In this document: positions 1,824-50,607 of the stretch, in pieces
Position numbering within the stretch: position 1 is the first letter of the stretch
Layout of the letters: each line of letters begins with the position of its first letter
IMG/VR virus record: IMGVR_UViG_3300010400_000025
Location: 1-50,607 of that record
From: a virus
Taxonomy: Duplodnaviria; Caudoviricetes
Strand: one strand, 5' to 3'
DNA: 50,607 bases
Notes under the pieces: model-generated
Database searches by the model: none
The model's input: the letters and a program-made list of their open reading frames with translations, nothing else
Told to the model about the DNA's origin: nothing
Program-made: the position numbers and the translations under genes

Positions 1824-2003
1824 CTATTTGTTCTTGGGGTGGACTTGACGCTCCATATGGTCGACCAGCCAAGGACGTATGTCCCTGCGGTCCCCGGCCC
1901 AGCCGAGCCCGCGCATGTTGGCGTCGTCGGGCTCCGGCGGCAGACACAGCTGTGGCTGGATCAGCCAGCGCCAAAAACGCCACAGGCGTTTTTGCACGCT
2001 CAT
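1824..2003 (-). CDS. Hypothetical protein (59 aa)
   Basis: ATGA overlap with the upstream small ORF; MSVQKRLWRFWRWL... Confidence 0.5.
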   Translation of the reverse strand: MSVQKRLWRFWRWLIQPQLCLPPEPDDANMRGLGWAGDRRDIRPWLVDHMERQVHPKNK

Positions 2004-2089
2004 CGCATCCACACGAACCAGATCGCCGGACCGACGATGATCAGCCCGACGAGCACGCCGAGCAGGAACGGCGCGATGTAGGGCCTCAC
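2000..2089 (-). CDS. Small single-pass membrane protein (29 aa)
   Basis: GTGA and ATGA overlaps on both sides; hydrophobic run IAPFLLGVLVGLIIVGPAIWFVW. Confidence 0.5.
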   Translation of the reverse strand: MRPYIAPFLLGVLVGLIIVGPAIWFVWMR

Positions 2090-2457
2090 GGCCTGGCACG
2101 CGAATGACGGCCAGGCTTCTTGAGCAGCTGCACCGCCTCTTCGTAGACCGTGAACTCGCTCGGCGGGAGATCGTCGGCCTCGGTCGGCCCGCCCCACGCT
2201 TCGCGGGGTTGCAGCACGCCGCTGTCATCAGCGGCATCGACGACGTCGATGTCGGCCTGCGGCGCCGGGGTTGCGGGGGGCGCAGTGGGCAGCGCCGCAG
2301 ACCGTGAAGGCTTTTCAACGTCGGCGGGCGATGCGGTCGGCCCGACGGCGTCGAGACGCGCCTTCAGTTCCCACCATTGCGGCAGCGAGGGGGCTTTGCC
2401 AGCAAGGGTGGAATCGAACGTGGCGAACCACGCTTTGAACTCTTCGAAGGTGAGCAT
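2086..2457 (-). CDS. Hypothetical phage protein (123 aa)
   Basis: MLTFEEFKAWFATFD...PSLPQWWELKARLDAV N-terminus with a Pro/Ala/acidic tail. Confidence 0.65.
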   Translation of the reverse strand: MLTFEEFKAWFATFDSTLAGKAPSLPQWWELKARLDAVGPTASPADVEKPSRSAALPTAPPATPAPQADIDVVDAADDSGVLQPREAWGGPTEADDLPPSEFTVYEEAVQLLKKPGRHSRARP

Positions 2458-2638
2458 GACGTGATCACTGTACCACCACAGGGTGGCGCTGTCACGACAG
2501 ACGCGTGACATGCCAGTACTCTTGTATGGCATACAAGGTTTTCGCGAAGCGAAATTTTGTACGCGCAGGGAGCTACCGCCACGCCTCGCGCGCCGGACTG
2601 CACGCCAGGGGGCGGGCCTGGGTGCGGACGCGCGCGCC

Positions 2639-2687
2639 GCGCACGCATTGCGTGCACAGCCGAAGGCTGTGCACGCAAGGCGTGCGC
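2639..2687. repeat. Long palindrome 1 (23-bp arms, one mismatch, C-GAA-G loop)
   Basis: GCGCACGC-A-TTGCGTGCACAGCC GAA GGCTGTGCACGCAA-G-GCGTGCGC. Confidence 0.95.
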
Positions 2688-2732
2688 TATGCGAAGCGTA
2701 GAATCCTGAGCAGATTGTAAAACCATCCACGA

Positions 2733-2745
2733 TATCAATGGCTTA
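2733..2745 (+). promoter_or_regulatory. IHF consensus site
   Basis: TATCAATGGCTTA matches WATCAA-N4-TTR. Confidence 0.6.
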
Positions 2746-2798
2746 GCGCTCGAGCCGGGTCCCGCTTGGGTCGGATCGCGCACACCTGGCGCGGGGAC

Positions 2799-2843
2799 GC
2801 GCGCAGCGCCTGCACAGCCGGAGGCTGTGCAGGCGCTGCGCGC
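2799..2843. repeat. Long palindrome 2 (perfect 21-bp arms, C-GGA-G loop)
   Basis: GCGCGCAGCGCCTGCACAGCC GGA GGCTGTGCAGGCGCTGCGCGC. Confidence 0.95.
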
Positions 2844-2978
2844 TGCGCATGCCAAACCGAATCGATTCGGCGCCGCGCGGCGCCCGCTCGGCGCCGAGCC
2901 GGTCGGCGCGCCGATTCAAGCTGTTTTTGCTGCTATCATTTCGCTATGTATGCCGCAACGCTTGGCAGTTTTGCGCGA

Positions 2979-2991
2979 TAAGCCTTTGATT
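2979..2991 (-). promoter_or_regulatory. IHF consensus site, inverted relative to 2733
   Basis: Minus strand AATCAAAGGCTTA matches WATCAA-N4-TTR. Confidence 0.6.
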
Positions 2992-3087
2992 TCATTGCGA
3001 AATAAAAATAATCAAAAAAGCGCTTGCATTTTGTCCTGAATTTCTATCCCTGTATGTCACACAACAAACAACGAAGGACATACGGAA

Positions 3088-3858
3088 ATGACGACTCCCG
3101 AATTCAAATCGCCGACCATTCGCGCAGGCGGCAACGCTAAAACCATCAAGGGCGATAAGCGCGGCGATTATCAAACCGCGATCATGTATCTTGCGCCTGC
3201 CAGGATGGCAGGCGGCGCCAATATTTGCCCGATGGCGCAACTCGCGGGTTGCGATCCGACCCATGGTGGCGGCTGCCTAGTCAACGAAGGGCGCGCCCGT
3301 CTCATGTCGAGCATAAACATTGCGCGCATTGCCAAGACTCGCCGCTATCTCGACAACCGCGCGGCGTTTATCGCCGAGCTTGTCCGCGATCTAGAGCGTT
3401 TCGTCCGGCATACCGCACGCCATGGCGTGAAAGCAGCTGTGCGCCTTAACGGTACATCGGATATCCAATGGGAAGTAGCTCACCCGTGCGAACGCAATGG
3501 CAAGCGGTTTGCTTCGTTGTTCGAAGCTTTTCCCGAAGTCACGTTCTATGACTATACGAAGATTTACAAGCGCGCTTATCGCGCTTTGCCGAGCAACTAT
3601 TCGCTGACTCTGTCCTACAGCGAAGCAAACCAAGGCTATGCCGATGCGATCATGAAAGCGCATAGCGATACCGGGCTTAACGTGGCTGTCGTTTACCGCA
3701 CCAAAGCTTTGCGCAACGCCATGGTGATTAACGGCAATTTCCCGACCATCGATGGCGATCAAACCGACATGCGGTTTCTAGACCCGAAGGGAGTCATTGT
3801 TGGGCTCTATGCCAAGGGAACAAGCAAGCGCGACACAACCGGCTTTGTCATCGGCTAA
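3088..3858 (+). CDS. GP88-family phage protein (three conserved Cys, possible Fe-S/radical-SAM-like fold)
   Basis: CPMAQLAGCDPTHGGGCL, VRLNGTSDIQWE, FYDYTK, DGDQTDMRFLD and GVIVGLYAKG motifs; AAGGA RBS. Confidence 0.75.
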   Translation: MTTPEFKSPTIRAGGNAKTIKGDKRGDYQTAIMYLAPARMAGGANICPMAQLAGCDPTHGGGCLVNEGRARLMSSINIARIAKTRRYLDNRAAFIAELVRDLERFVRHTARHGVKAAVRLNGTSDIQWEVAHPCERNGKRFASLFEAFPEVTFYDYTKIYKRAYRALPSNYSLTLSYSEANQGYADAIMKAHSDTGLNVAVVYRTKALRNAMVINGNFPTIDGDQTDMRFLDPKGVIVGLYAKGTSKRDTTGFVIG

Positions 3859-3914
3859 GCAGCGTTTCGGTTTGGCGCGGTGGCGCGCGCCTTTCCGAAG
3901 CTCTGGAAAGCTTC
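3859..3914 (+). repeat. Early-region stem-loop junction repeat, copy 1
   Basis: GCAGCGTTTCGG-TTT-GGCGCG[GTGGCG]CGCGCC-T-TTCCGAAGCTCTGGAAAGCTTC. Confidence 0.95.
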
Positions 3915-3937
3915 GTTAACCCTTGAAAGGAAATGCC

Positions 3938-4474
3938 ATGATGTTTTTGAACCAAATTTGTGTTGTTCCCGCTGCATGGTCGACCGCTTGCGGTTTCGGC
4001 GATGCCGAGTTGCGCTTGCGCGTGATCTCAATTCGCAAGGCCAATGGCTGGACGTTCGCCAAAGTCGAGCACCCTAGCGGCTTCGGCGAGTGGATGGTTA
4101 ACGTTGAAATGCGTGACGCAACGTTGCTGACTGTCAACGTTGCCACAGCCGAAGATTTGGCCGCGCTGCGCAGCTACGCCATCGAATTCGGCCCTAAGTG
4201 GAAGGATAGCCTTGCGCTCGACTGGTACCACGCGCGCGCCCATGGCAAACGCGGCGCGATCCTGCACGGCGTGCGCAACAATTTCGGCCCGTCATGGCTT
4301 GACGCCTTCGAATTCGCCGACCCGATCGCCTGGCCGAACCTGCGCAAAGAAAAAACCCCCATGCTGCGCAACATGCGCGTGGCGCTGTCGCTGCACAGCT
4401 GGAACAATTCCGACGAGGAAAATATCCGCCTCGGCGCGGTCAAGCGCGAGCTTCACCGTCGCGGGACCTGGTAG
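3938..4474 (+). CDS. Hypothetical early protein (178 aa)
   Basis: GAAAGGA RBS; FGPKWKDSLALDW...GAILHGVRNNFGPSWL block. Confidence 0.8.
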   Translation: MMFLNQICVVPAAWSTACGFGDAELRLRVISIRKANGWTFAKVEHPSGFGEWMVNVEMRDATLLTVNVATAEDLAALRSYAIEFGPKWKDSLALDWYHARAHGKRGAILHGVRNNFGPSWLDAFEFADPIAWPNLRKEKTPMLRNMRVALSLHSWNNSDEENIRLGAVKRELHRRGTW

Positions 4475-4477
4475 CGC

Positions 4478-4535
4478 GCAGCGCTTCGGTTAGGGCGCGC
4501 CTCGGCGCGCCACTTCCGAAGCTCTGGAAAGCTTC
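4478..4535 (+). repeat. Early-region stem-loop junction repeat, copy 2
   Basis: GCAGCGCTTCGG-TTAG-GGCGCGC[CTCG]GCGCGCC-AC-TTCCGAAGCTCTGGAAAGCTTC. Confidence 0.95.
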
Positions 4536-4556
4536 GCAACACAAGGAAAAACGCCA

Positions 4557-4793
4557 ATGCTCACCACCATCGACTCCCGCGTGTGCGCCACGCTCGCCGA
4601 GCTACAAGAAACGCTCGACCATTTCGCTGCGCTCGCGCAGCGCCACCCGTCGACCGTCTACCTGGTCGAAGGCCTGACCCTGCAGCTGGTCGAAAAGACG
4701 CTGACCGACGGTTCCACCGTGTTTGACATCCGCCTCGGCGCTGCGCCCGACGCTGACACTTGCCCCGTGTGCGGCCTGGAGCACAGCGCATGA
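4557..4793 (+). CDS. Hypothetical early protein (78 aa)
   Basis: AAGGA RBS after repeat 2; 'EKTLTDGSTVFDIRL' motif and C-terminal CPVC. Confidence 0.75.
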   Translation: MLTTIDSRVCATLAELQETLDHFAALAQRHPSTVYLVEGLTLQLVEKTLTDGSTVFDIRLGAAPDADTCPVCGLEHSA

Positions 4794-5035
4794 GCACGCA
4801 AAAGCCGTTCGAAGTGCACGTCAAGCGCTACCGCGATCAACACGCCTGGACCGTGTCCGAGCACCGTTCGATCATGGCCGCGATGACGTCGCTGCGCTCC
4901 ACCATATCGGGCCGCAAGCACCGCCTGCGCGACCTAGAGCAGGCGCACATATGGTGCGCTCGCGACAACCGCAACTATTCACTGCACCGCGCCGCCGAGC
5001 TTCACGCCGAAGGCTATTTCGAGGGAATCAACTGA
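4790..5035 (+). CDS. Hypothetical early protein (81 aa)
   Basis: ATGA overlap; MSTQKPFEVHV... Confidence 0.7.
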   Translation: MSTQKPFEVHVKRYRDQHAWTVSEHRSIMAAMTSLRSTISGRKHRLRDLEQAHIWCARDNRNYSLHRAAELHAEGYFEGIN

Positions 5036-5262
5036 TGAGCACCACACTGCAACCCGGCGACCGCGTGCGCTACGCTCGCGCCTTCCTGCGCAACGTCCAT
5101 TGCCGCGATCCGCAACGCCTCACGCGCCGCGCCACCGTCGTGGCGATCGAGCCCGAGCTTCGGCCCAGAGGGCCGCGCCCTGTGGTCGTGCAATGGGACG
5201 ACGCCGATGGCGCGCGCCGCGTGCTGTCCTGCAACCTGGAGCGATTGACAACCCACCTGTGA
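5035..5262 (+). CDS. Small SH3/KOW-like protein (75 aa)
   Basis: TGATG overlap; LQPGDRVRY...VVVQWDD...NLERL pattern. Confidence 0.7.
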   Translation: MSTTLQPGDRVRYARAFLRNVHCRDPQRLTRRATVVAIEPELRPRGPRPVVVQWDDADGARRVLSCNLERLTTHL

Positions 5263-5275
5263 ACGTGTGACATAC
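5245..5275 (+). promoter_or_regulatory. Putative promoter: perfect TTGACA with a GTGACATAC box over the -10 position
   Basis: TTGACA 5245-5250, GTGACATAC 5267-5275, AAAGGAG RBS downstream. Confidence 0.55.
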
Positions 5276-5310
5276 ACACCAACCGCAACGCTCTTGAAAG
5301 GAGCCCTCTC

Positions 5311-5520
5311 ATGTCCTGGAAGCCCGAAGTGTTCGTCGACCGCAAGTGGAACCGCAACGGCCTGGTGTTCGCCACCGAAGCCGAAGCCCGCGCCAACGCG
5401 AGCGATCTCATGGATCGCTGGTTTGCGGTCGACGACAGCCGCGCCGTCGAAGTCGACGAGCCCGTTACCCACACCTACACCGATCGCCGCCTGGCGGCGA
5501 TCGAGCGCGAACACGCCTAG
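5311..5520 (+). CDS. Hypothetical early protein (69 aa)
   Basis: AAAGGAG RBS; MSWKPEV...NGLVFATEAEA...DLMDRW. Confidence 0.8.
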   Translation: MSWKPEVFVDRKWNRNGLVFATEAEARANASDLMDRWFAVDDSRAVEVDEPVTHTYTDRRLAAIEREHA

Positions 5521-5573
5521 CAGCGTTTCGGTTTGGCGCCTTCGGGCGCCCTTCCGAAGCTCTGGAAAGCTTC
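5520..5573 (+). repeat. Early-region stem-loop junction repeat, copy 3
   Basis: GCAGCGTTTCGG-TTT-GGCGCC[TTCG]GGCGCC-C-TTCCGAAGCTCTGGAAAGCTTC. Confidence 0.95.
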
Positions 5574-5596
5574 TCAACCCGCGAAAGGAAATGCCA

Positions 5597-5833
5597 ATGA
5601 CCGTTATCAACCAGCCTGCCCCCTACGCCGTCCTGATCAACGCAACCTACGGGCCGACCGGCGAAACCTCGACCACCCGCTTCGGCAACTACCCGAGCGA
5701 GCGGGAAGCCCTGGCCGCGATCCGCGACAACGAGGACTATTGCACCAAGCACCGCATCAACACCCACAAGCGCGCCTACCGGCTGTTCAAGGCCGAGTGG
5801 ACTGAGTTGTTCGTCGGCGAGGTGACCGCATGA
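5597..5833 (+). CDS. Hypothetical early protein (78 aa)
   Basis: GAAAGGA RBS after repeat 3; MTVINQPAPYAV... Confidence 0.75.
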   Translation: MTVINQPAPYAVLINATYGPTGETSTTRFGNYPSEREALAAIRDNEDYCTKHRINTHKRAYRLFKAEWTELFVGEVTA

Positions 5834-5934
5834 TGCTCGCACTAGGCGTGAGCGTGTTCGTCACGCTCGCGCTGATCCAACTACCCTTCGCGCTGCTGCG
5901 CGAAGTCGAGCGCCGAACGCGGCGCCGCAAATGA
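5830..5934 (+). CDS. Small membrane peptide (34 aa)
   Basis: ATGA overlap; MMLALGVSVFVTLALIQLPFALLREVERRTRRRK ends just before the terminator. Confidence 0.6.
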   Translation: MMLALGVSVFVTLALIQLPFALLREVERRTRRRK

Positions 5935-5935
5935 G

Positions 5936-5961
5936 AGGGGGCTTCGGCCCCCTTTTCTTTT
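5936..5961 (+). terminator. Rho-independent terminator closing the early region
   Basis: AGGGGGC-TTCG-GCCCCCT followed by TTTCTTTT. Confidence 0.9.
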
Positions 5962-5988
5962 GCCTGCTGTCGGCGTCGTGTCTGACGC

Positions 5989-6140
5989 TGCCTCACCTTG
6001 GGCGGAAATAATTCGGTCGTTAGTGCCATTGGTCTGCCCCACCACACCATTGTACCCCCTTCGGGGGGATACAAGGTGAGGCAGGGCGCAGACCTTGCGC
6101 CTCGCCCCACCTTTGCCCCACCTTGGCAAGGTGGGGCAAA
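5989..6140. repeat. Iteron-like GCCYCACCTT repeats and palindromes; candidate replication origin
   Basis: TGCCTCACCTTG 5989-6000 / CAAGGTGAGGCA 6072-6083; GCCCCACCTT 6104-6113; perfect TTTGCCCCACCTTG-G-CAAGGTGGGGCAAA 6112-6140; CCCCC-TTCG-GGGGG 6055-6068. Confidence 0.6.
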
Positions 6141-6143
6141 CCG

Positions 6144-8390
6144 CTAATCGAAGACGCTTTTCGCTCTGACATACCAGCGCTTGTTTCGCTTCTTGTCGAG
6201 CAGCTGCACACGCTCCAAGATGCCACTCTTGACCCACTGTCCGATCAGCCTCTTGACCTGTGCCTTGTCGTCCGGCTCGGCGAGATCGAGATTGAGCGCC
6301 ATGGCGACGACATTGCCCACCCAATCGTCGCGCGCCTGGGCGTCCTCGCGCCACGGCTCGGCGCCGAGCACCTGCAGCACTGATGGGACGTCAGCCTTGG
6401 CGCCGTCACCGGACCCCACCGACCACGCCACCACCACCGCCACATGATCGCCCTCGCGCCAACGCGAGCTACCATCCGCAGCGTCCACCACCCCATTGCC
6501 CAGGTCGACATTGTCGAGCTTCAGCCATTCGGTTTCATCATCCACCCACGGCGCCAGGTTCGACGCCGCGTCGGTCACCCTGAACAGCGACCGATAGGCG
6601 GTCGTCAGCCCCAGCTGCTTGCCCTCTTTCTTCGTCATCCGCGCCAGCGCCCGCACAGAGCGCATCTTGGCGACCAGCGCCGATGCGCCTCGGGCGGCAT
6701 CGACCGATGCGTCAGGATCGCTTCCCTGGCTCGCCTTGCGGGCATGGTGCACGAACTCGATGCCGACGCCTGCCTGATCCGCCACCCTGATCCATTCGGT
6801 CATCACCATGTCGATGCCCGAATTGTTGTTCTCGGATATCTCATGCGAGCTAACAAACGGATCGATCACCAGGACGTCGATGCGCCGCGCCTGAAGCTCG
6901 GCGACCAACGCCGATATCAGCGGGTGCAGCAGCTTGACGCCGTTCTTGTCCTCGATCGCGGTGACCAGGCGCAGCGATCGACCGCTGTCGAGGAACAGCC
7001 GGTCGCCGATATCGGCGGGCTCGATCTTATGGCGCAGCATCGCCGCCGTGATGCGCCGCTGAAGCTCCTCCAGCGGGTCTTCGCCGTTGATGTACCAGAC
7101 CCGCAGCGTGCCCTTGGGCCGCATATGCGGCAGCAACGTCCTGCCGGTTGTCATCGCCAGCACGTCGACCGTGGTCAGGCTGCTCTTGCCGACCTTGCTC
7201 GGGGCGACGGTCATCGACGCGAAGCGCCGCACGATGTGCGTGCCATACAGGAAATCGCGCGGCGGGGTGGCGTCCGACGGCACATGCTGCCACGGCGTGG
7301 CGGCAACCATGGGTCCTTGCGCCTCGTCGGGGCCGAAGATGGATTCATATTCCGGCTCGACCTCGACCTCGGGGCTCTCGACGAACCATTGCTCGGCAAA
7401 GCCGGTCCAGCCCGCCTTTTCCGCCTGGTGGTAGATGTAGTCCGCCCCTAGCTCCCGTGCGCTCTCGATCGACGCGAAGACCCGGTGCGCTTTCTCCGTC
7501 GGCGCCTCGATGCCAGCCTTGTCGGTGAACTCCTGGAAGAGTTCCAGGCCGTCGCTGTAGTCGACCGCGCCGCGCAATGCGATGGCGATGTTGCGCCATT
7601 GGTCGTAGCCGATCACCGCCGGGTCGTTCGGGATAGCCCGCATCGCCTCGGCGACGAGCCGTGGGTCACCACGGAGCTTCTCGGGGGCAACTACCTTGCC
7701 GTCGCCGGTCTGCGTCCTGGCAGCCTCCGGTAGCTCGCTGCGCAGCTGCACCAGGAACGCATTGCGCTGCTCGATCGTGATGATCGTGAGTTCCTCACGG
7801 GGCGGCATCCCATCGGGCCAGCTGTACGGCTGCCTGGTCTGCGGATGCACGCCGCACGCCACGAACCATTTCGCCTCGCCCGCCAGGCTCTCAACCAATC
7901 CTGGCGCGAGCTTGCGCTCGCCGACCACGACCAGCTTGTGCTCGTTGTCGCGGAAGCGGACCTGGTCGTACCGCATCTCGGGCGGGCAGTTGTACGGCAG
8001 CAGCACCTTGGGCGGGCGCCCGATCCGCCTCGGCGCGGGGCCGAGCATCTCATGCGCGAGCCCCATGATGTGGCTCACCCATTTCGGCGTCAGCGTGTCG
8101 ATGTCGATGCCGGTCATGCCGGTGCCGTTGCAGCTGAAGCCGACGCTGGCGCCCATGGCGTGCCATAGCTCGATCGTCTCTGGCGTGGCCGTGAAGTCCT
8201 TCGACGCCTTGCCGATCCAGTCGCCGTTGATCAGCACGCCGGGGCGTTTTCCCGCGTTGCTGATGCCGCCTTGCGGGGGCACCACGGGCAGGAGATTATG
8301 GTAGCCAAGGTCCCAGCATCGCTGAAAATGGTTGATACGTGCGTCATTCGCGTTATGCTTGGACACAGGGTTCATCCACCCTTTTTGCAT
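6144..8390 (-). CDS. Primase-helicase (prim-pol N-terminus, PriCT-2-like domain, RepA/AAA_25 helicase)
   Basis: GIDID catalytic motif, GYDQWRNIAIAL, Walker A APSKVGKS, Walker B LVIDPF, FVHHARK, ARGASAL. Start may be 8375. Confidence 0.9.
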   Translation of the reverse strand: MQKGWMNPVSKHNANDARINHFQRCWDLGYHNLLPVVPPQGGISNAGKRPGVLINGDWIGKASKDFTATPETIELWHAMGASVGFSCNGTGMTGIDIDTLTPKWVSHIMGLAHEMLGPAPRRIGRPPKVLLPYNCPPEMRYDQVRFRDNEHKLVVVGERKLAPGLVESLAGEAKWFVACGVHPQTRQPYSWPDGMPPREELTIITIEQRNAFLVQLRSELPEAARTQTGDGKVVAPEKLRGDPRLVAEAMRAIPNDPAVIGYDQWRNIAIALRGAVDYSDGLELFQEFTDKAGIEAPTEKAHRVFASIESARELGADYIYHQAEKAGWTGFAEQWFVESPEVEVEPEYESIFGPDEAQGPMVAATPWQHVPSDATPPRDFLYGTHIVRRFASMTVAPSKVGKSSLTTVDVLAMTTGRTLLPHMRPKGTLRVWYINGEDPLEELQRRITAAMLRHKIEPADIGDRLFLDSGRSLRLVTAIEDKNGVKLLHPLISALVAELQARRIDVLVIDPFVSSHEISENNNSGIDMVMTEWIRVADQAGVGIEFVHHARKASQGSDPDASVDAARGASALVAKMRSVRALARMTKKEGKQLGLTTAYRSLFRVTDAASNLAPWVDDETEWLKLDNVDLGNGVVDAADGSSRWREGDHVAVVVAWSVGSGDGAKADVPSVLQVLGAEPWREDAQARDDWVGNVVAMALNLDLAEPDDKAQVKRLIGQWVKSGILERVQLLDKKRNKRWYVRAKSVFD

Positions 8391-11067: not shown

Positions 11068-11117
11068 CTTGGTTGCTCCGTTATGTGTCTTACGTATGTC
11101 ACAACAGGCGGTTTGCT

Positions 11118-20939: not shown

Positions 20940-21075
20940 TGCGTATGTCACCGCAGGGTCCGCAGTTAAGAGACTAAGCTCAATTTTCTTCGCTGGCAAA
21001 GGGCAAAATATGTGTGTGTCCTACAAAAATGTCTTGACACCCGTCTGTTGAACCCCTTAGCTGTGACATACACAG
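20940..21075. promoter_or_regulatory. Divergent control (immunity) region
   Basis: AT-richer gap between divergent operons; TTGACA 21034-21039; inverted GTGACATAC boxes at 20943-20951 and 21063-21071. Confidence 0.7.
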
Positions 21076-21124: not shown

Positions 21125-21583
21125 ATGGCTCGCACCCAAAAGCATCACATCATGTCTGACGCCCCCAACAATGCGGTAACGGCAGACGCACCCAGGCACC
21201 TGACTAAGCAGGAATTTGGTCGGCGCCTCAATCAACTTATGTTGAAGAAAGGCATGCATCACGCCGAGCTTGCTCGACGCGCCGATCTCCCCCGCAACAA
21301 CATCTCGACGTACATCAACGGTCGGTCCTATCCGACCGAGCAGAGCCTGGCGAAGCTCGCCAAGGCGCTCGGCACCACCTCGGACGAGCTTCTCCCGAAC
21401 AGGGCGGAAATGGCGATCCGTGGGGAGAGCCAGCCGGACCTTTCCATGAAGTCCAGTGTGGCCGATCCAGGCAAGGCATGGCTGGTCGTCAACCGGCTCG
21501 TCTCGACGAGGCTCGCCGCCGAGATCATGGTGCTGCTTGAGAAAGAGCGACTATCAGAATCCGCCCCCAACGGCGCAAAATAA
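21125..21583 (+). CDS. XRE-family HTH repressor
   Basis: FGRRLNQLMLKKGMHHAELARRADLPRNNISTYINGRSYPTEQSLAKLAKALG; no S24 peptidase domain seen. Confidence 0.9.
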   Translation: MARTQKHHIMSDAPNNAVTADAPRHLTKQEFGRRLNQLMLKKGMHHAELARRADLPRNNISTYINGRSYPTEQSLAKLAKALGTTSDELLPNRAEMAIRGESQPDLSMKSSVADPGKAWLVVNRLVSTRLAAEIMVLLEKERLSESAPNGAK

Positions 21584-21602
21584 GAAAAAAGGACCTGAAA
21601 AA

Positions 21603-22811
21603 ATGACCATCTCCTACAAGATCGATCTCGACCGCGAAAACGACAGCGGCATCTACTACGTGCACTGGCGCGCGAACGTCAAAGGCAAGCTACGCAACAA
21701 GCGCGCCAGCCTGAAGACGCGCGTCTTTGAGGAAACCGACGCGGCGCTCAAGCAGTTCCTCATCAAGAAGGGCGAGACGGTCGACACCGTCGCCCAAAGC
21801 GGCGTCGTCTACACGATCGCCGACCTCTGGCCGCTCTATCTGGAGAAGCTCAAGGCGGGCCGCACCCTTGAGCGCGCCGAAAGTGTCTGGGAGCATTGCA
21901 TGCGCGGTCACTTCGGCCATCTGACGGTGCCGGAAGTCACCAACCTGGTCGTCCAGGATTACATCCAGAAGCGCACGTCCGGCAGGCTCACCTGTCCCGG
22001 CAGGGGCGGGCGCAAGACCGGCAGGGCGGTGAAGGGGCCGACGGTGCGCAACGAGATCGTGCTCTTGACCGCCTGCATGAACTATAGCTCGCAGCGCAAA
22101 TACCTGAACGAGCTTTTCGCGCCGACGCTGATCAAGGGTTTTAAGCTGCCCGACGCTTCGAAGCCGCGTGATCGCGTGCTGACCGACGACGAGATGGACC
22201 GGCTGCTGGACGCCGCCGTCGCCCGCTCGCAGGCCGAAGGCAAGCTCTCGCGCATCGAGCTTTTCATCCGCCTGGCCTACCAGACGGCGGGCCGCGAGAA
22301 GGCGGTGCGCACCCTGACGTTCGATCCCAAGCGCATCGATTTCGAGCAGAACTTCATCAACCTCGACGACGGTCATCGCCTGAAGAAGGACAAGAAGCGG
22401 GCCGTCATCTACATGGACGCCACGCTGGCGGCGGTGCTGCGGCGGGCGCTGGCCGAGAGCGACCAATCGGTGCCGCTGGAAAAGCGCTACGTGCTCGGCC
22501 ATCCCGGCCAGATATGGCCGACCTTCCAGCGCGTCGTGCATGAGGCTGGCCTGACGCCGGAAGGCTGGGTGCTGCCTGCCCGGTCGAAGACGCCGCTGAC
22601 CACCGGCATCAGCCCGCACACGCTGCGCCACACGGCGGCGACCAACATGCTCAAGGACGGCGTCCCGGTGTCGCACGTCGCCGAGTTCCTCGGTGACACG
22701 ATCGCCACCGTCGAGCGCAACTACAAGCACTTGCTATCGGGTCACCTGAAGGCGGCGGCTGCGGTGCTGGCGCCTAAACTGCGCGTCGTCAGGGATCGGG
22801 ACGCGGCGTGA
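21603..22811 (+). CDS. int: Tyrosine recombinase / integrase
   Basis: RDRVLT, TAGR, PHTLRHTAAT, VAEFLGD, VERNYKH catalytic motifs; N-terminal arm-binding-like YYVHW segment. Confidence 0.92.
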   Translation: MTISYKIDLDRENDSGIYYVHWRANVKGKLRNKRASLKTRVFEETDAALKQFLIKKGETVDTVAQSGVVYTIADLWPLYLEKLKAGRTLERAESVWEHCMRGHFGHLTVPEVTNLVVQDYIQKRTSGRLTCPGRGGRKTGRAVKGPTVRNEIVLLTACMNYSSQRKYLNELFAPTLIKGFKLPDASKPRDRVLTDDEMDRLLDAAVARSQAEGKLSRIELFIRLAYQTAGREKAVRTLTFDPKRIDFEQNFINLDDGHRLKKDKKRAVIYMDATLAAVLRRALAESDQSVPLEKRYVLGHPGQIWPTFQRVVHEAGLTPEGWVLPARSKTPLTTGISPHTLRHTAATNMLKDGVPVSHVAEFLGDTIATVERNYKHLLSGHLKAAAAVLAPKLRVVRDRDAA

Positions 22812-27908: not shown

Positions 27909-28201
27909 ACTTGGGTCGGACTTGGGTCTTTTGTCCGACTTGGGTCGCACTTGGGTCGCGTTTTTATGGCTTTTGTCCTATCATACGTGACATACAACAG
28001 GCCTCAAAGGCTTGGAATAGGTGGATTTGTGCGTATGACGCAGGTTGTTCACGGTAGACAACAGAATCTTCATGCGATTCCCCGCTCCAATGAGAACATC
28101 CGCTTAACCTCCTGAAATCGCTGATTGATTTTGTTCACAGCCGACTTGGGTTCTGAAAACTTGGGTTTTTCCTGGGTTTTTTGGACCCGAAAAGGACCCG
28201 A
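27909..28201. repeat. attP-like locus with clustered 9-bp arm-type repeats
   Basis: ACTTGGGTC at 27909, 27920, 27938, 27949; ACTTGGGTT at 28144, 28159; inverted GGACCCGA at 28183, 28194. Non-coding, AT-richer, and where two operons converge. Confidence 0.6.
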
Positions 28202-29107: not shown

Positions 29108-29583
29108 TGGAACAGCGCTCTGAGATCGACCGGGAATCGCGTCCGCCTTGGCACCGCCTCCGGCACGACCGGAGGTTGCACGCCCCAGTAGTCTGGAAAT
29201 TCCGGCAGCGGCGGTTGCGCCACCGCTTGCGGCGGCTGCTCGCCGAAATATTGCGGGAACTGTGGCGGCACGAACACCGGCTCCGGCGGCTGCTCGCCGA
29301 AATATTTCGGGAACTCCGGCGGGACGAATAGACTCTCGATGGTGGGCCTCGGCTGGGGCGTCGGCACCGCTGCCGTTTCCGCAGGCGCCGGTTCGCCCGC
29401 TGCCGCCGTTGCCGCCGCTGCCTGCGCCTGGCGCTGCAACGCGGTGCTGGAGCCACGGCCAGCAGCGATGTTGGCCGAGCGCACCGCCTGGTCACGTCTT
29501 GCCCCTTCGGTGTCACCGCCAGGATTGTAACGAGCCATCTCGCGCTGCAGCAGTGCTGCAAAATCTTCGGGCGATACGGGCAT
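29104..29583 (-). CDS. Pro-rich protein with an 18-aa internal repeat
   Basis: AGGAG RBS; FVPP.FP.YFGEQPP twice (DNA repeat 29230-29252 / 29284-29306). Confidence 0.7.
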   Translation of the reverse strand: MPVSPEDFAALLQREMARYNPGGDTEGARRDQAVRSANIAAGRGSSTALQRQAQAAAATAAAGEPAPAETAAVPTPQPRPTIESLFVPPEFPKYFGEQPPEPVFVPPQFPQYFGEQPPQAVAQPPLPEFPDYWGVQPPVVPEAVPRRTRFPVDLRALFQ

Positions 29584-30794: not shown

Positions 30795-30834
30795 CGATAT
30801 CTCTATGTATGTCACACGTCCTTGGAGAAATTAA

Positions 30835-33277: not shown

Positions 33278-34971
33278 CAGTCAAGCTCCCCCGGCTTCAG
33301 GACGATACCGTTCTGCTGGAGCAAGTCGGTCGCTTCCTGCTTCGTGTAATCGCCGCTGGCAATCGCCGCCTTGGCGTTGGCGATCGACGCAGCCCGATCT
33401 TCAGGAGACATGGCCTCCGCAGGCGCTGCCGTGGCCGCTGGAGCGTTCGCAGCGGGTGCGGCGGCTGCCGGAGCCGCCACGGCTGGAGACGCTGTAGCGG
33501 GCGCTGGCGTGGCCGCTGGAGGAGTTTGCGCGGTCGCCGGGGCGGTTGATGCCGCCGGAGCCGCCGTCGCGCCCTTGGCCGCAGCACCGGCAATTCTGCG
33601 GATCGCATTTTGCGACGTCTCGAAAGCGTTGCGCTTGATCGCCTTGGTGTCGGGATTGTCGCTCGGCAGCGGGATCATCGCGATCAGCTTGCGCGCATAC
33701 TCGCCCTCGGTGACCGCCTGGCCAGACCGGACCATCAATTCATAGGGCAGCGCCTGCTGCATGGCGGCAAAGAACGTCTGCCCCTCGTTGGTCAGCAGCG
33801 AGTTCATGTACGGCAGCGCGCCAGACATCAGGAAGCTGTCAGCCGTCGCCATCTTATTGATCACCTGGAAAGCGGCGATATCGCCCGTCGTCGGCGTCTT
33901 GCCAGTGTCGAATGCGTCGAGGATGATCTTAGTCGGCTTCTCCATCATCTCCTCGGCGAAACCCGCCTTGGTCTGGAAATCGGTCGGCGGCTTGCCGCCT
34001 GCGGCGCCAGCGCCCTGGCGGATACCGGCGACCGTGCCGTCGGGGTTGAAATCGACGGCGAATTGGTTGCCGCCGCTGCCCTTGCTAACGACGCCCTCGG
34101 CGGGCTTGCTCGGGTCGTTCTGATCGTAGATGCGACCGTCGGAGCCGATATAGCCGACGAAGCTCCGTTCGCCGCCCTTGGCGTCGACAGCGTGGTAGGT
34201 GTCGACGCCCTTGATGTCGACCACCGACTCCTGCTTCGAACGATCGGGCAGCTGCGAGAAGGTGAGGCCTTTCTCTTCCGTTTCCGACAGCACCGGCTTG
34301 AGCCCAGCCGCCTCGAAGCGATTGCTCAGCACCGGATTCCCGGCAGCATCGACCGTCGGGGTCACCTCGGTGCCGAGCAGTGCCTGCTTGATGACATCCG
34401 TGTCGCTGATGCCGGTCGTGTCGCCCCTGGCCAGCCGGTTCAGGTAGTCGGCCTTCGCCTCGTCCCAGGTCTGCGGCTTCGGCGTGCCATGCATCTCCGG
34501 GATCGCCTGCGTGCCGCCGAACGGCGCCAGCACTTCAGCCGGGATCGCCGGTTGCGTTTCGCCGACCCCGATATTACCGTAGCCCTCGGTGATGATCTTG
34601 ACGAGATTGTCCGACTTGTTCGCCGCCTCGCGCTGAAGGTTGTCGGCAATGTTGTTCGATCGCGACGTCGCCGCCTGCGTGTCATAGCCGTAGCGCGCCG
34701 TCGCAGCGGTCGTGTCGACAGCCTTGTAGCTCTGCGTCGGATCGTAGAGATCGGAGAATACACCCGCCCGATCGAGCAACTCGGGATCGGCGTCTGGTCG
34801 CTGCATGTAGTCCCAGATCGCCTGGCGCTGGTTCGTCTCCAAATCCTTGGCCCGCGCCGCCGCGTAGCCGGATTCATCGGAGCCGGACGGCGGGCCGAAC
34901 AGATCGGACAGGTTTGCCGCCGCCTGCGCCATCGCCGGGTCATTGTAGTAGCGGTTGCCCTTGATCGCCAT
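33277..34971 (-). CDS. Internal virion / ejection protein (564 aa)
   Basis: Position, TGATG coupling, Ala/Pro linker near the C-terminus. Confidence 0.7.
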   Translation of the reverse strand: MAIKGNRYYNDPAMAQAAANLSDLFGPPSGSDESGYAAARAKDLETNQRQAIWDYMQRPDADPELLDRAGVFSDLYDPTQSYKAVDTTAATARYGYDTQAATSRSNNIADNLQREAANKSDNLVKIITEGYGNIGVGETQPAIPAEVLAPFGGTQAIPEMHGTPKPQTWDEAKADYLNRLARGDTTGISDTDVIKQALLGTEVTPTVDAAGNPVLSNRFEAAGLKPVLSETEEKGLTFSQLPDRSKQESVVDIKGVDTYHAVDAKGGERSFVGYIGSDGRIYDQNDPSKPAEGVVSKGSGGNQFAVDFNPDGTVAGIRQGAGAAGGKPPTDFQTKAGFAEEMMEKPTKIILDAFDTGKTPTTGDIAAFQVINKMATADSFLMSGALPYMNSLLTNEGQTFFAAMQQALPYELMVRSGQAVTEGEYARKLIAMIPLPSDNPDTKAIKRNAFETSQNAIRRIAGAAAKGATAAPAASTAPATAQTPPAATPAPATASPAVAAPAAAAPAANAPAATAAPAEAMSPEDRAASIANAKAAIASGDYTKQEATDLLQQNGIVLKPGELD

Positions 34972-49008: not shown

Positions 49009-49262
49009 CAGTGGCCTCCTGCGAGAACGTTTTCGACCGTCGGCCCGCCGAACAGGCTGTCCGGCGCGGCGAGTATCTGCTGGTTGGTCGGATCGGCGGG
49101 CGCGATGGTGCCGCCTTCGGCGATGTAGCGCAGCCAATCGCCCTGCGTGCAGGCGTCGTTGAGCCACCAGATCGTGTCATCATCGCCCACGGCGCGGATC
49201 AGCTGCTCGGGCGGCGGCATGTCATTGACGACGTATTGGGCGGACACGAAATTGGGCATCAC
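49008..49262 (-). CDS. Tail-fibre chaperone-like protein (84 aa)
   Basis: GDWLRYIAEGGTIAPAD motif, directly after the fibre gene. Confidence 0.6.
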   Translation of the reverse strand: MMPNFVSAQYVVNDMPPPEQLIRAVGDDDTIWWLNDACTQGDWLRYIAEGGTIAPADPTNQQILAAPDSLFGGPTVENVLAGGH

Positions 49263-50607
49263 ATCCTCCCGTTGACCGTGACGGTCGAACCAAATCTGGC
49301 AAAATTGGTTGTGGCGGGGGTCGTCAGCGACGTGCGAACTTCCGACACATAGCAGCCATCAGAACCCAGGCTCAAAGTGCCGACAGTTGCTGAAAATGCG
49401 TTGGCAGCAAAATAGTTAGCACCGCTCAGAATTGGATTAGGTCTTGGCGCCACTGGCAAATACGCTGCGTACAGATAAGCGGTGCTTGCTTGAACGAAGC
49501 CGTAGAATGCCCCCCACGTCTGCTGCCAGTAGCGCTGACACTTGGCGAGTTCAGTACTGTATTCCGGTATCTCAAAACGCGGCGGCAAGCCGGTGTTGAG
49601 TGGATCAAGGTACAAGCCGACATCGAACAGTTCATAGACAGCACCGGCTGCTGCAAGACCGTTGGTCAAACCCGCCAGTGAGAATGAGTTGGTCGCTAGC
49701 CAAGTATTACCCGATGCCGCCTGAAAGTTGGCCCCGCTTCCAACTGAGATCGTGACGTACATGCCACGCACTTCAGTGGTATCCCACACGCCAGTAGTGT
49801 CGCCGGGGACCACGAACACTTGTTCCGTGTCGGTGTTTGCCTGCCCCGCGCTGATGGTGAATGGCACAACGTAACAGCGGTTAGCCGGACCGTTGCGGAG
49901 CGATGCTGCATAGGTACCTGCTGGTCCCTTGAAACCAAAACGAAGGATGACTTGCCGTGCACCCGCTGCACCCCAACCGAAGTCCGCGATCTGTTTCCCT
50001 TCGATGGCTTGCAGCCACTGTTGGTACTCGTTAGCGGCAAGCGCTGCGTCGGCAGTGCCAACAGTGAGGCGTATACGGTCGGCTGATTTGTTCGGCGTCC
50101 GCAATTGCACACGCTGCGCTGACTGGGTGCCGCCTGAGATCGTTGCAGTCAGCCACTGGTCTGCGGCGTAGTACGACAACGAAGCCACTGGACCGCCTAG
50201 TGTGTCGCCCCATTCCTGGCTGACCTGCATGGCAGGATTGACAATCCTGTTGCGCGCCTGGGCGGTCGGCACAGCGCCAGCCGCCGCCAGCGCCGCCGTC
50301 ACGAAGGCCGTCGTCGCCACGCTGGTGTCGTTGTCGCCACCTGCCGGAGTTGGCGCCTGCGGGTTGCCCGTGAAAACCGGGCTGGCAAGATCAGCCTTGA
50401 GCGCGAGAGCGGGGGTGAAGGAGTTGAGGACGGTTTCGATCTCGCCCAACGTGTCAAAGCCAGGCGAAGCAGTGCCCTTGAGCAGGTTGATCGCAGTCTG
50501 GACGAAAGCAGTGGTGGCAATCGCAGTGCCGTTGTTGCCCGCTGCGAGCGTCGGCGCCGTCGGGTTCCCGGTCAATGCCGGGGAGGCCAGCGGCGCGAAT
50601 GTCGCCG
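49259..50607 (-). CDS. Tail fibre protein, C-terminal part (enters from the window end)
   Basis: Frame open to 50607; PTAPT/IATTAFV repeats, FDTLGEIE, RNRIVNPAM, Y.ADQW, ELAKCQRYW. Confidence 0.9.
   Translation of the reverse strand, partial: ATFAPLASPALTGNPTAPTLAAGNNGTAIATTAFVQTAINLLKGTASPGFDTLGEIETVLNSFTPALALKADLASPVFTGNPQAPTPAGGDNDTSVATTAFVTAALAAAGAVPTAQARNRIVNPAMQVSQEWGDTLGGPVASLSYYAADQWLTATISGGTQSAQRVQLRTPNKSADRIRLTVGTADAALAANEYQQWLQAIEGKQIADFGWGAAGARQVILRFGFKGPAGTYAASLRNGPANRCYVVPFTISAGQANTDTEQVFVVPGDTTGVWDTTEVRGMYVTISVGSGANFQAASGNTWLATNSFSLAGLTNGLAAAGAVYELFDVGLYLDPLNTGLPPRFEIPEYSTELAKCQRYWQQTWGAFYGFVQASTAYLYAAYLPVAPRPNPILSGANYFAANAFSATVGTLSLGSDGCYVSEVRTSLTTPATTNFARFGSTVTVNGRM

Follow-up and report, generated by a model that had tools for sequence, protein, structure and literature searches.

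A repeated junction element was analysed in IMGVR_UViG_3300010400_000025, a whole IMG/VR virus record of 50,607 base pairs (bp) with a 100% completeness rating, which is referred to at its full length as the window. The window is a complete temperate tailed phage from soil. The element occurs three times on the + strand, at the junctions of a GP88-family gene with orf2 (copy 1, 3859-3940), of orf2 with orf3 (copy 2, 4478-4559), and of orf6 with orf7 (copy 3, 5520-5599). An original prediction had described the copies as a structured element for RNA processing or switching, as a recombination platform, or as both.

The GP88-family gene (3088-3858; PF17338, phrog_1617) is gene 1 of a separate + strand operon converging on the primase/helicase gene. 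It is followed by orf2 (3938-4474), orf3 (4557-4793), orf4 (4790-5035), orf5 (5035-5262), orf6 (5311-5520), orf7 (5597-5833), and orf8 (5830-5934, 34 codons), all on the + strand; stops and starts overlap from orf3 to orf5 (4557-5262). The upstream region at 3020-3087 (+) contains an AT-rich tract, TTGCAT, and an operator-like 11-mer, TGTATGTCACA, at 3051-3061, and is conserved in a relative known from metagenome contigs (L132). The operon is closed by a canonical intrinsic terminator at 5933-5966 (+) with a 10-bp GC stem, a UUCG loop, and a U-tract. A consensus scan of 2000-7000 found no promoters for the downstream operon genes and no sigma-70-like promoter in or beside the copies, and reading the copies revealed no TATAAT-like hexamer at a fixed place. 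Because all three copies lie within one transcription unit ending in a U-tract terminator, they are, judged by sequence, internal to one polycistronic mRNA running from 3020-3087 to 5933-5966.

The stops of the preceding genes end at 3858 (TAA), 4474 (TAG), and 5520 (TAG), and the elements begin at 3859, 4478, and 5520. This confirmed the predicted spacing of 0-3 nucleotides (nt) past the stop; copy 3 includes the G of TAG. In copy 1, the 5′ arm occupies 3859-3870, the upper hairpin 3874-3891, a 22-mer 3893-3914 (3′ arm 3895-3905), and the tail with the ribosome-binding site (RBS) and ATG 3915-3940. Copy 2 has its 5′ arm at 4478-4489, with C-G where the others have U-G, an upper hairpin with a CUCG loop inside 4490-4515, a 20-nt core at 4516-4535, and the tail with RBS and ATG at 4536-4559. 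The corresponding parts of copy 3 are the 5′ arm at 5520-5531, an upper hairpin with a c(UUCG)g loop inside 5532-5553, the 20-nt core at 5554-5573, and the tail with RBS and ATG at 5574-5599. The RBS after each hairpin is AAAGGAAA or AAGGAAAAA, and the start codons lie at 3938, 4557, and 5597. The original prediction was right in placing the element at gene junctions but had ended it before the RBS; alignment showed that the repeat is the whole intergenic unit of about 80-85 nt, including GAAAGGAAATGCCA(A)TG, and runs through the RBS to the start codon.

The 22-mer TTCCGAAGCTCTGGAAAGCTTC is exactly repeated at 3893, 4514, and 5552, on the + strand only, as had been predicted. Allowing up to 3 mismatches revealed no further site on either strand of the window, and none of 100 shuffles gave a match; the number expected by chance is 0. 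An antisense partner of the 22-mer was likewise not found elsewhere in the phage at up to 3 mismatches on both strands. A covariance model run with filters off recovered these three copies alone in 50.6 kb. No Rfam 15 family reached its gathering threshold; the best overlaps were HCV_SL588 (22.1 bits, gathering 79) and nos_TCE (18.2 bits, gathering 60), with E 0.5-6. The three copies contain no U-tract, and a terminator scan flagged 0/3, in agreement with the earlier view that they are not intrinsic terminators.

A bipartite helix was predicted for each copy. The lower stem, CAG.GYUUCGG / CCGAAGC.CUG in 3/3 copies, has 10 pairs and one C-U mismatch, and includes one U-G pair (C-G in copy 2). 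It is followed by a 3×3 internal loop (a 4×4 region in copy 2) and a GC-rich upper stem of 6-7 bp with a loop of 4-6 nt. The helix is about 20-21 positions long, and free energies of the full element fold are −30 to −37 kcal/mol. The lower stem, internal loop, GC-rich upper stem, and single cUUCGg loop of the original prediction were therefore all reproduced. The same fold was predicted in 6/6 copies from two phages, the three in the window and three in the metagenomic relative. The lower-stem U-G pair, present in five of the six, would read as a C-A mismatch on the opposite strand, and on the − strand of copy 1 the lower stem was not formed.

The original prediction had also named a mutually exclusive hairpin, GAAGCU-CUGGAA-AGCUUC. 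Omitting the 5′ arm allows this hairpin to form, with −8 to −10.6 kcal/mol. Under that condition it is the minimum-free-energy fold in 6/6 copies, with the GGA core of the Shine-Dalgarno (SD) sequence and the start codon unpaired; in five of the six, a 2-3 bp helix takes the bases just before the SD GGA core.

The relative is represented by two overlapping metagenome contigs, L132 and L133, which carry three more full copies (M1, M2, and M3). Its DNA identity to the window is 73% in the GP88 gene, 75% in the C-terminal part of orf2, and 75% in orf4. The 5′ arm differs from that of the window by at most one base, and the 20-nt core shows 0 differences. Placement 0-3 nt from the stop was seen in 6/6 copies. 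The constancy of the core and 5′ arm amid 73-75% coding identity indicates selection, beyond what within-genome homogenisation would give. At L133 978-1010, beside a five-C run, the ATG after the third element is one base out of frame with the orf4-homologous frame; a real frameshift or a sequencing error in this old, low-coverage contig would explain the offset.

Further copies were sought widely. In metagenome contigs the 20-mer was found at 6 loci, with full elements in L132 and L133 only, and the core was absent from IMG/VR contigs other than the window. A 16-mer search of IMG/VR gave 15 single matches with no extended similarity, and a gapped two-arm pattern gave 3 matches, all within coding DNA. 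No copy turned up when 80 loci around GP88 homologues were searched with a profile. Against 185,579 species genomes, an 18-mer gave 27 single matches in unrelated taxa. The element is not a host repeat of the REP or RIME type, because these species-genome matches were single and lacked extended similarity.

Gene content beside the elements differed between the two phages. The order in the relative is GP88, element, a 152-amino-acid gene, element, a shorter orf2, element, and orf4, and that in the window is GP88, element, orf2, element, orf3, and orf4. The 152-amino-acid gene is absent from the window and is flanked by elements on both sides where the window has copy 1 alone. Copy 1 combines parts of different copies of the relative, agreeing with M1 in the 5′ arm (12/12 positions), with M1 and M2 in the tail (24/26), and with M3 in the middle part with the upper hairpin (22/24). 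Such a mosaic is what would be left by a crossover between two elements. In addition, orf3 is found in the window only, directly 3′ of an element, and orf2 of the window has about 60 extra N-terminal residues, beginning right after an element. Against this one relative, the left edge of the difference lies at an element in 3/3 cases and elements stand on both sides in 1/3; the orf3 and orf2-extension differences have their right edge at or inside coding sequence. The cassette idea of the original prediction gained genuine but slender support from the difference bounded on both sides and from the mosaic.

Hairpins in comparable positions were found in related phages. Among cultured phages, Rhizobium phage RHph_N65 (MN988536.1, L140) has the DNA polymerase closest to that of the window (49% identity); its genome is syntenic with that of the window. 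Its equivalent operon is small and also converges on the primase/helicase gene. Two repeats lie there on the − strand, at ~36,578-36,530 between genes 055 and 054 and at 36,278-36,230 between genes 054 and 053. Each is ~45-60 nt long and consists of a bipartite hairpin starting at the TGA stop, UUUCGG.AAGGGCG-loop-CGCCCUU.UCGAAA, and GCCAGCA..CAAMCCGACA. The leaders of genes 055 and 054 have ACAAACCGACA.GGAGTTAC in common. The RHph_N65 hairpin resembles the element of the window in being a repeated bipartite post-stop hairpin in an equivalent operon with TGTATGTCAC upstream. It differs in its shorter helix (13-14 bp) and in lacking the GAAGCU/AGCUUC alternative hairpin. It is regarded as an analogue and not as a shown homologue, because the window covariance model did not detect it on the RHph_N65 sense strand (E 8.4).

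A GP88 homologue is the second gene of the early region of Mesorhizobium phage Lo5R7ANS, a temperate member of the Autographiviridae; in Rhizobium phage TRX32-1 a homologue belongs to a group of small hypothetical genes that follows the terminase. In Lo5R7ANS (L099, 2575-2624) and five metagenomic relatives (L019-L023), a conserved hairpin of 21-22 bp, unrelated in sequence to the window element, extends from some 20 nt past the stop of GP88 to a point just short of the following RBS. This hairpin would work only as sense RNA, because six of its pairs are predominantly G-U. Its loop, CCUCCA, is anti-Shine-Dalgarno-like and lies just upstream of the AGGAG of the next gene, and the hairpin may serve either as a site for RNase III or in the control of translation. 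On this comparison, a structured and often repeated RNA hairpin at these junctions is a recurring trait of the group. A literature search found no paper naming Lo5R7ANS or RHph_N65, and within that search the RHph_N65 repeats have no published description; a search combining intergenic repeats or stem-loops with early genes and RNase III returned nothing relevant. Two other GP88-carrying viral contigs (L025 4904-5830 and L027 4765-6256) have their own AT-rich repeats of 24-29 nt flanking the GP88 gene, for example TATCCACATGTGCATAG in 4 copies, which may be operators or promoters.

We tentatively propose, with somewhat less than even confidence, that the element works between cistrons as an RNA signal for processing or stability, of the kind cut by RNase III in T7, that its 3′ arm refolds, and that the repeats act secondarily as recombination linkers. 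A T7-type signal was proposed because the size and shape of the helix, about 20-21 positions with an internal loop, match. The location of the copies inside one transcription unit, the fold and the alternative hairpin predicted in 6/6 copies, the strand asymmetry of the U-G pair, the unchanged core in the relative, and the comparable hairpins of related phages also speak for it. In the transcript, the lower stem, 3×3 internal loop, and upper stem would form one helix directly past the stop codon. RNase III would cut in or near the internal loop, or the helix would act as a plain block to 3′ exonucleases. The upstream cistron would keep a protective 3′ hairpin, and the freed 3′ arm would refold in vivo, giving the new 5′ end a small hairpin, GAAGCU-CUGGAA-AGCUUC, with a standard, unpaired region for ribosome binding close downstream. 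Each cistron would become a separately stabilised and separately translated unit. The near-identical 80-bp units would also supply homology for recombination, and genes would be gained or lost between copies.

Known RNase III sites offer a standard for this proposal. T7 RNase III sites are not known to be sequence repeats of one another, and the primary sequence of RNase III substrates is normally not conserved. RNase III needs about two helical turns, internal loops confine its cleavage to one strand, and the remaining 3′ hairpin shields against exonucleases (PMC1540722); these recognition rules were taken for the Escherichia coli enzyme, and the host enzyme may differ. T7 R1.1, which lies between early genes, is a hairpin of 60 nt whose internal loop measures 4/5 nt; it is cleaved by a rhizobial RNase III, an enzyme reported to differ (PMC6121014). 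The element shares with the T7 sites an intercistronic hairpin in a polycistronic phage mRNA, a length of about two turns, an internal loop, and an end shortly before the RBS. A predicted two-turn hairpin with an internal loop between cistrons of one mRNA was found in 6/6 copies. In addition, GP88 relatives lie in the early region of T7-like (Autographiviridae) phages, with the 21-22 bp hairpin at the same junction. The element differs from R1.1 in its symmetric 3×3 internal loop. It also differs from the T7 system in having 20-22 nt invariant across copies, and Pfam found no T7-like RNA polymerase among 45 open reading frames (ORFs) scanned in the window.

Several observations weigh against an RNase III signal. 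The invariant 20-22-mer exceeds what RNase III usually needs and would more readily fit a sequence-specific binder or a constraint from two structures. With 6-7 bp, the upper stem is shorter than that of T7 R1.1, and the first RHph_N65 hairpin copy, at about 13-14 bp, is too short for a classic RNase III site. Fold z-scores against dinucleotide shuffles are modest, −1.1 to −2.6, for this GC-rich sequence. In the six-copy alignment, 14 of the 16 predicted pairs never vary; one pair changes one-sidedly from U-G to C-G, and one at the top of the upper stem changes on both sides from C-G to G-C. The earlier claim that the upper stem varies with pairing kept has its basis in this top pair only; the first five upper-stem pairs are invariant. 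Covariation is thin, invariant pairs being uninformative on structure, and the strongest signal in the alignment is the sequence conservation of the lower stem and 3′ block. The listed sequencing runs that contain the phage include no RNA run, and a possibly rhizobial host is suggested by the nearest cultured phages.

The invariance of the block in 6/6 copies of two diverged phages would also fit a translational operator for a sequence-specific RNA-binding protein, either phage-encoded or of the host CsrA/RsmA type. A dimer would bridge the hexaloop GGA and the SD GGA and would repress or time translation of each downstream gene. CsrA targets have such a two-GGA layout, with one GGA in a loop and one in the SD, and the first loop base of CsrA sites is usually A. 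In 6/6 predicted 3′ folds, GGA occupies loop positions 3-5 of the CUGGAA hexaloop and the SD GGA core is unpaired; both GGAs are present in 6/6 copies, about 24-27 nt apart, and the repeat takes in the whole translation-initiation region. However, the first loop base is C, not A, and in full-length RNA the long hairpin wins (−30 to −37 against −8 to −10 kcal/mol). The GGA hairpin would need prior cleavage or melting, because the long hairpin is far more stable. Family searches recognised no RNA-binding protein among the operon products, and the hairpins of RHph_N65 and of the Lo5R7ANS type lack the GGA-hexaloop motif. An operator of this kind is an unlikely explanation, although one with a real chance. 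A mainly DNA-level recombination linker of the PeSL kind, in which the identical 80-bp units exist to permit homologous exchange, insertion, and deletion of accessory genes and the hairpin has no RNA function of its own, was also considered and is on balance improbable. It would account for the insertion of the 152-amino-acid gene and an extra element exactly at the copy 1 site, for the mosaic copy 1, and for the orf3 and orf2-extension differences that both begin directly after an element, and there is a precedent in the PeSL (PMC2839356). These are three events in one relative, with elements on both sides in only one and two ending inside or at coding sequence. Homology alone leaves unexplained both the unchanged core between genomes that differ by 25% and the abutment of the stop within 0-3 nt in 6/6 copies. 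Contigs of four other DNA runs contained the identical phage in fragments with 0 differences, and no joint at an element was found in them; the single joint, at 4613-4983, was short-sided. A combined version seems rather doubtful, in which the unit is a standardised two-state gene junction and also a recombinase-free, integron-like linker swapping early accessory genes among temperate rhizobial phages. Here a terminating ribosome at the stop abutting the lower stem, or an RNase III cut, would free the invariant 3′ arm, which would snap into the small 5′ hairpin by the fixed RBS region, leaving the cistrons insulated and expressed alike.

Stable GC-rich hairpins directly past stop codons could also be factor-dependent or leaky transcriptional attenuators, producing a falling expression gradient perhaps relieved by an antiterminator, and PeSL stem-loops have been shown to terminate (PMC2839356). 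This reading is quite unlikely. No U-tract follows the upper or the whole hairpin, consistent with the 0/3 result of the terminator scan. Since a canonical U-tract terminator closes the operon, the host apparently relies on the standard signal. Strong termination would silence the downstream genes, because they have no promoter of their own. Least probable, with only a faint chance, is a DNA operator for a dimeric protein, recognising the 18-bp GAAGCT-N6-AGCTTC and blocking elongation in the prophage. Stoperators of this kind are operators of cluster A mycobacteriophages that lie within operons. The perfect 6-N6-6 palindrome is invariant in 6/6 copies, and the phage, a temperate one, encodes an HTH repressor and an integrase. 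Yet at up to 2 mismatches the palindrome was found 5 times against 2.2 expected, the two extras lying in coding DNA; it is absent from the immunity region, which carries the unrelated TGTATGTCAC; and a DNA operator gives no account of why the 5′ arm and upper hairpin are present or why the copies lie so close to stop codons. The linker, the attenuator, and the palindromic DNA operator were thus considered less likely than the processing or stability signal.

Other candidates were rejected directly. Reading of the sequence excluded a sigma-70 promoter, a sigma-54 promoter (the GG/GC spacing is not kept), and lambda-type nut sites, which as a rule occur once per operon. A ROSE thermometer was rejected for lack of an Rfam match, and stop-codon read-through because open frames past stops are expected anyway at 63% GC. 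Integron attC sites carry conserved cores (RYYYAAC ... GTTRRRY) at each of their two ends and have an integron integrase close by; the six-copy alignment has no conserved core ends, and the sole integrase is phage-type and 17 kb off.

Compared with known systems, the element is most like T7 RNase III sites in its proposed working and like PeSL and SAS/ESAS in its layout, and is a member of none. A PeSL comprises a strong sigma-70-like promoter with an AT-rich upstream region and a terminating stem-loop (PMC2839356). Like the element, it is short, conserved, and composite, and recurs between small accessory ORFs. It bounds differences between relatives (PMC2839356), which for the element applies on both sides in 1/3 cases. 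Unlike the PeSL of T4-type phages, the element has no promoter-like site and no terminator-like tail, and lies inside one operon. The SAS of cluster K mycobacteriophages is a 13-nt sequence, GGGATAGGAGCCC, just upstream of start codons, and the ESAS consists of 17-bp inverted repeats with a 4-13 bp spacer, its function being given as unknown (PMC3203893). The likeness is a conserved asymmetric RBS-containing motif before the starts of a gene subset, with all copies in one orientation and an imperfect inverted repeat of variable spacing ahead of it (PMC3203893). The element differs in sequence and in host phylum, and GGGATAGGAGCCC is absent from the six-copy alignment. Its arms are 11 nt long, the 22-26 nt between them form a second hairpin, and it has 3 copies per genome in one operon, each abutting the preceding stop.

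If the proposed function is correct, the element would be a portable 80-nt junction that bundles an mRNA processing or stability signal with a fixed translation start in temperate soil, probably rhizobial, phages. Any small gene set between two such junctions would be expressed correctly. The PeSL idea of regulatory cassettes as shuffling vehicles would be extended beyond T4-type lytic phages and moved from promoters and terminators to post-transcriptional signals. In high-GC hosts, it might also find use as a compact part for insulating cistrons from one another. Two phages carry the sequence and one relative was available for comparison, which limits the case.

The 11-mer TGTATGTCACA connects the operon with the immunity region. 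It occurs 6 times at up to 1 mismatch in the window against 0.14 expected, at 3051-3061 (+), 5266-5276 (−), 11093-11103 (+), 21062-21072 (−), 27986-27996 (−), and 30806-30816 (+). A further site at 20942-20952 was spotted by eye. Besides the copy upstream of the GP88 operon, two inverted copies lie where RusA and the HTH repressor gene diverge, and the inverted copy at 5266-5276 lies in the orf5/orf6 spacer, the only long junction of the operon without an element. In RHph_N65, the 10-mer TGTATGTCAC marks the immunity region, another divergent region, and the upstream side of the equivalent operon; its count is weaker, with 4 sites against 1.06 expected, and 4 were reached in 2/100 shuffles. 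The 11-mer probably serves as a repressor operator or promoter core, and in that role it would link the operon with early lytic control. We infer the label of early genes for the operon because GP88 homologues lie in the early region of temperate Autographiviridae and because the operator-like 11-mer is common to the immunity region.

No significant family match was found for 7/8 operon products (orf2-orf8), so the host-takeover and anti-defence roles given in the original prediction were unsupported. For orf2, no relatives were found in IMG/VR with the single protein or with a two-sequence alignment, and a protein atlas gave no usable match. The AlphaFold2 model of GP88 had a pLDDT of 84 and gave no Foldseek match at E≤0.001. 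In VIA-align, radical-SAM enzymes made up 14/15 top chains, with Z 5.5-6.4, which is below the trustworthy level. Cysteines C47, C55, and C63 are invariant in 28 homologues. GP88 may be a radical-SAM-like enzyme with unusual cysteine spacing.

Elsewhere in the window, an HTH repressor-like gene lies at 21125-21583 (+) and the phage-type integrase at 21456-22811 (+), 17 kb from the elements. Long − strand blocks encode RusA, an SNF2 helicase, a DUF2800/PD-(D/E)XK nuclease, an Enc34-type single-stranded DNA-binding protein, a family A DNA polymerase, and the primase/helicase, followed by lysis, structural, and terminase genes. The record ends represent an arbitrary opening of a circular or permuted genome, because a tail-fibre-like gene on the − strand spans both (2-1057 and 49259-50605, as ORFs open at the 3′ end and 5′ end, respectively). 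Regarding the host, a GP88 search in one order (104 genomes) gave 2 weak, uninformative matches, and four genomes reached via chance core matches gave nothing. Within − strand genes, there is a tandem duplication of 54 nt (87% identical) at 29221-29328 and a repetitive, GC-rich stretch at 33419-33565. Two near-perfect hairpins of ~46 nt, at 2640-2685 and 2798-2843, have the common core TGCACAGCCGRAGGCTGTGCA and are placed between the leftward tail-fibre genes and the GP88 operon.

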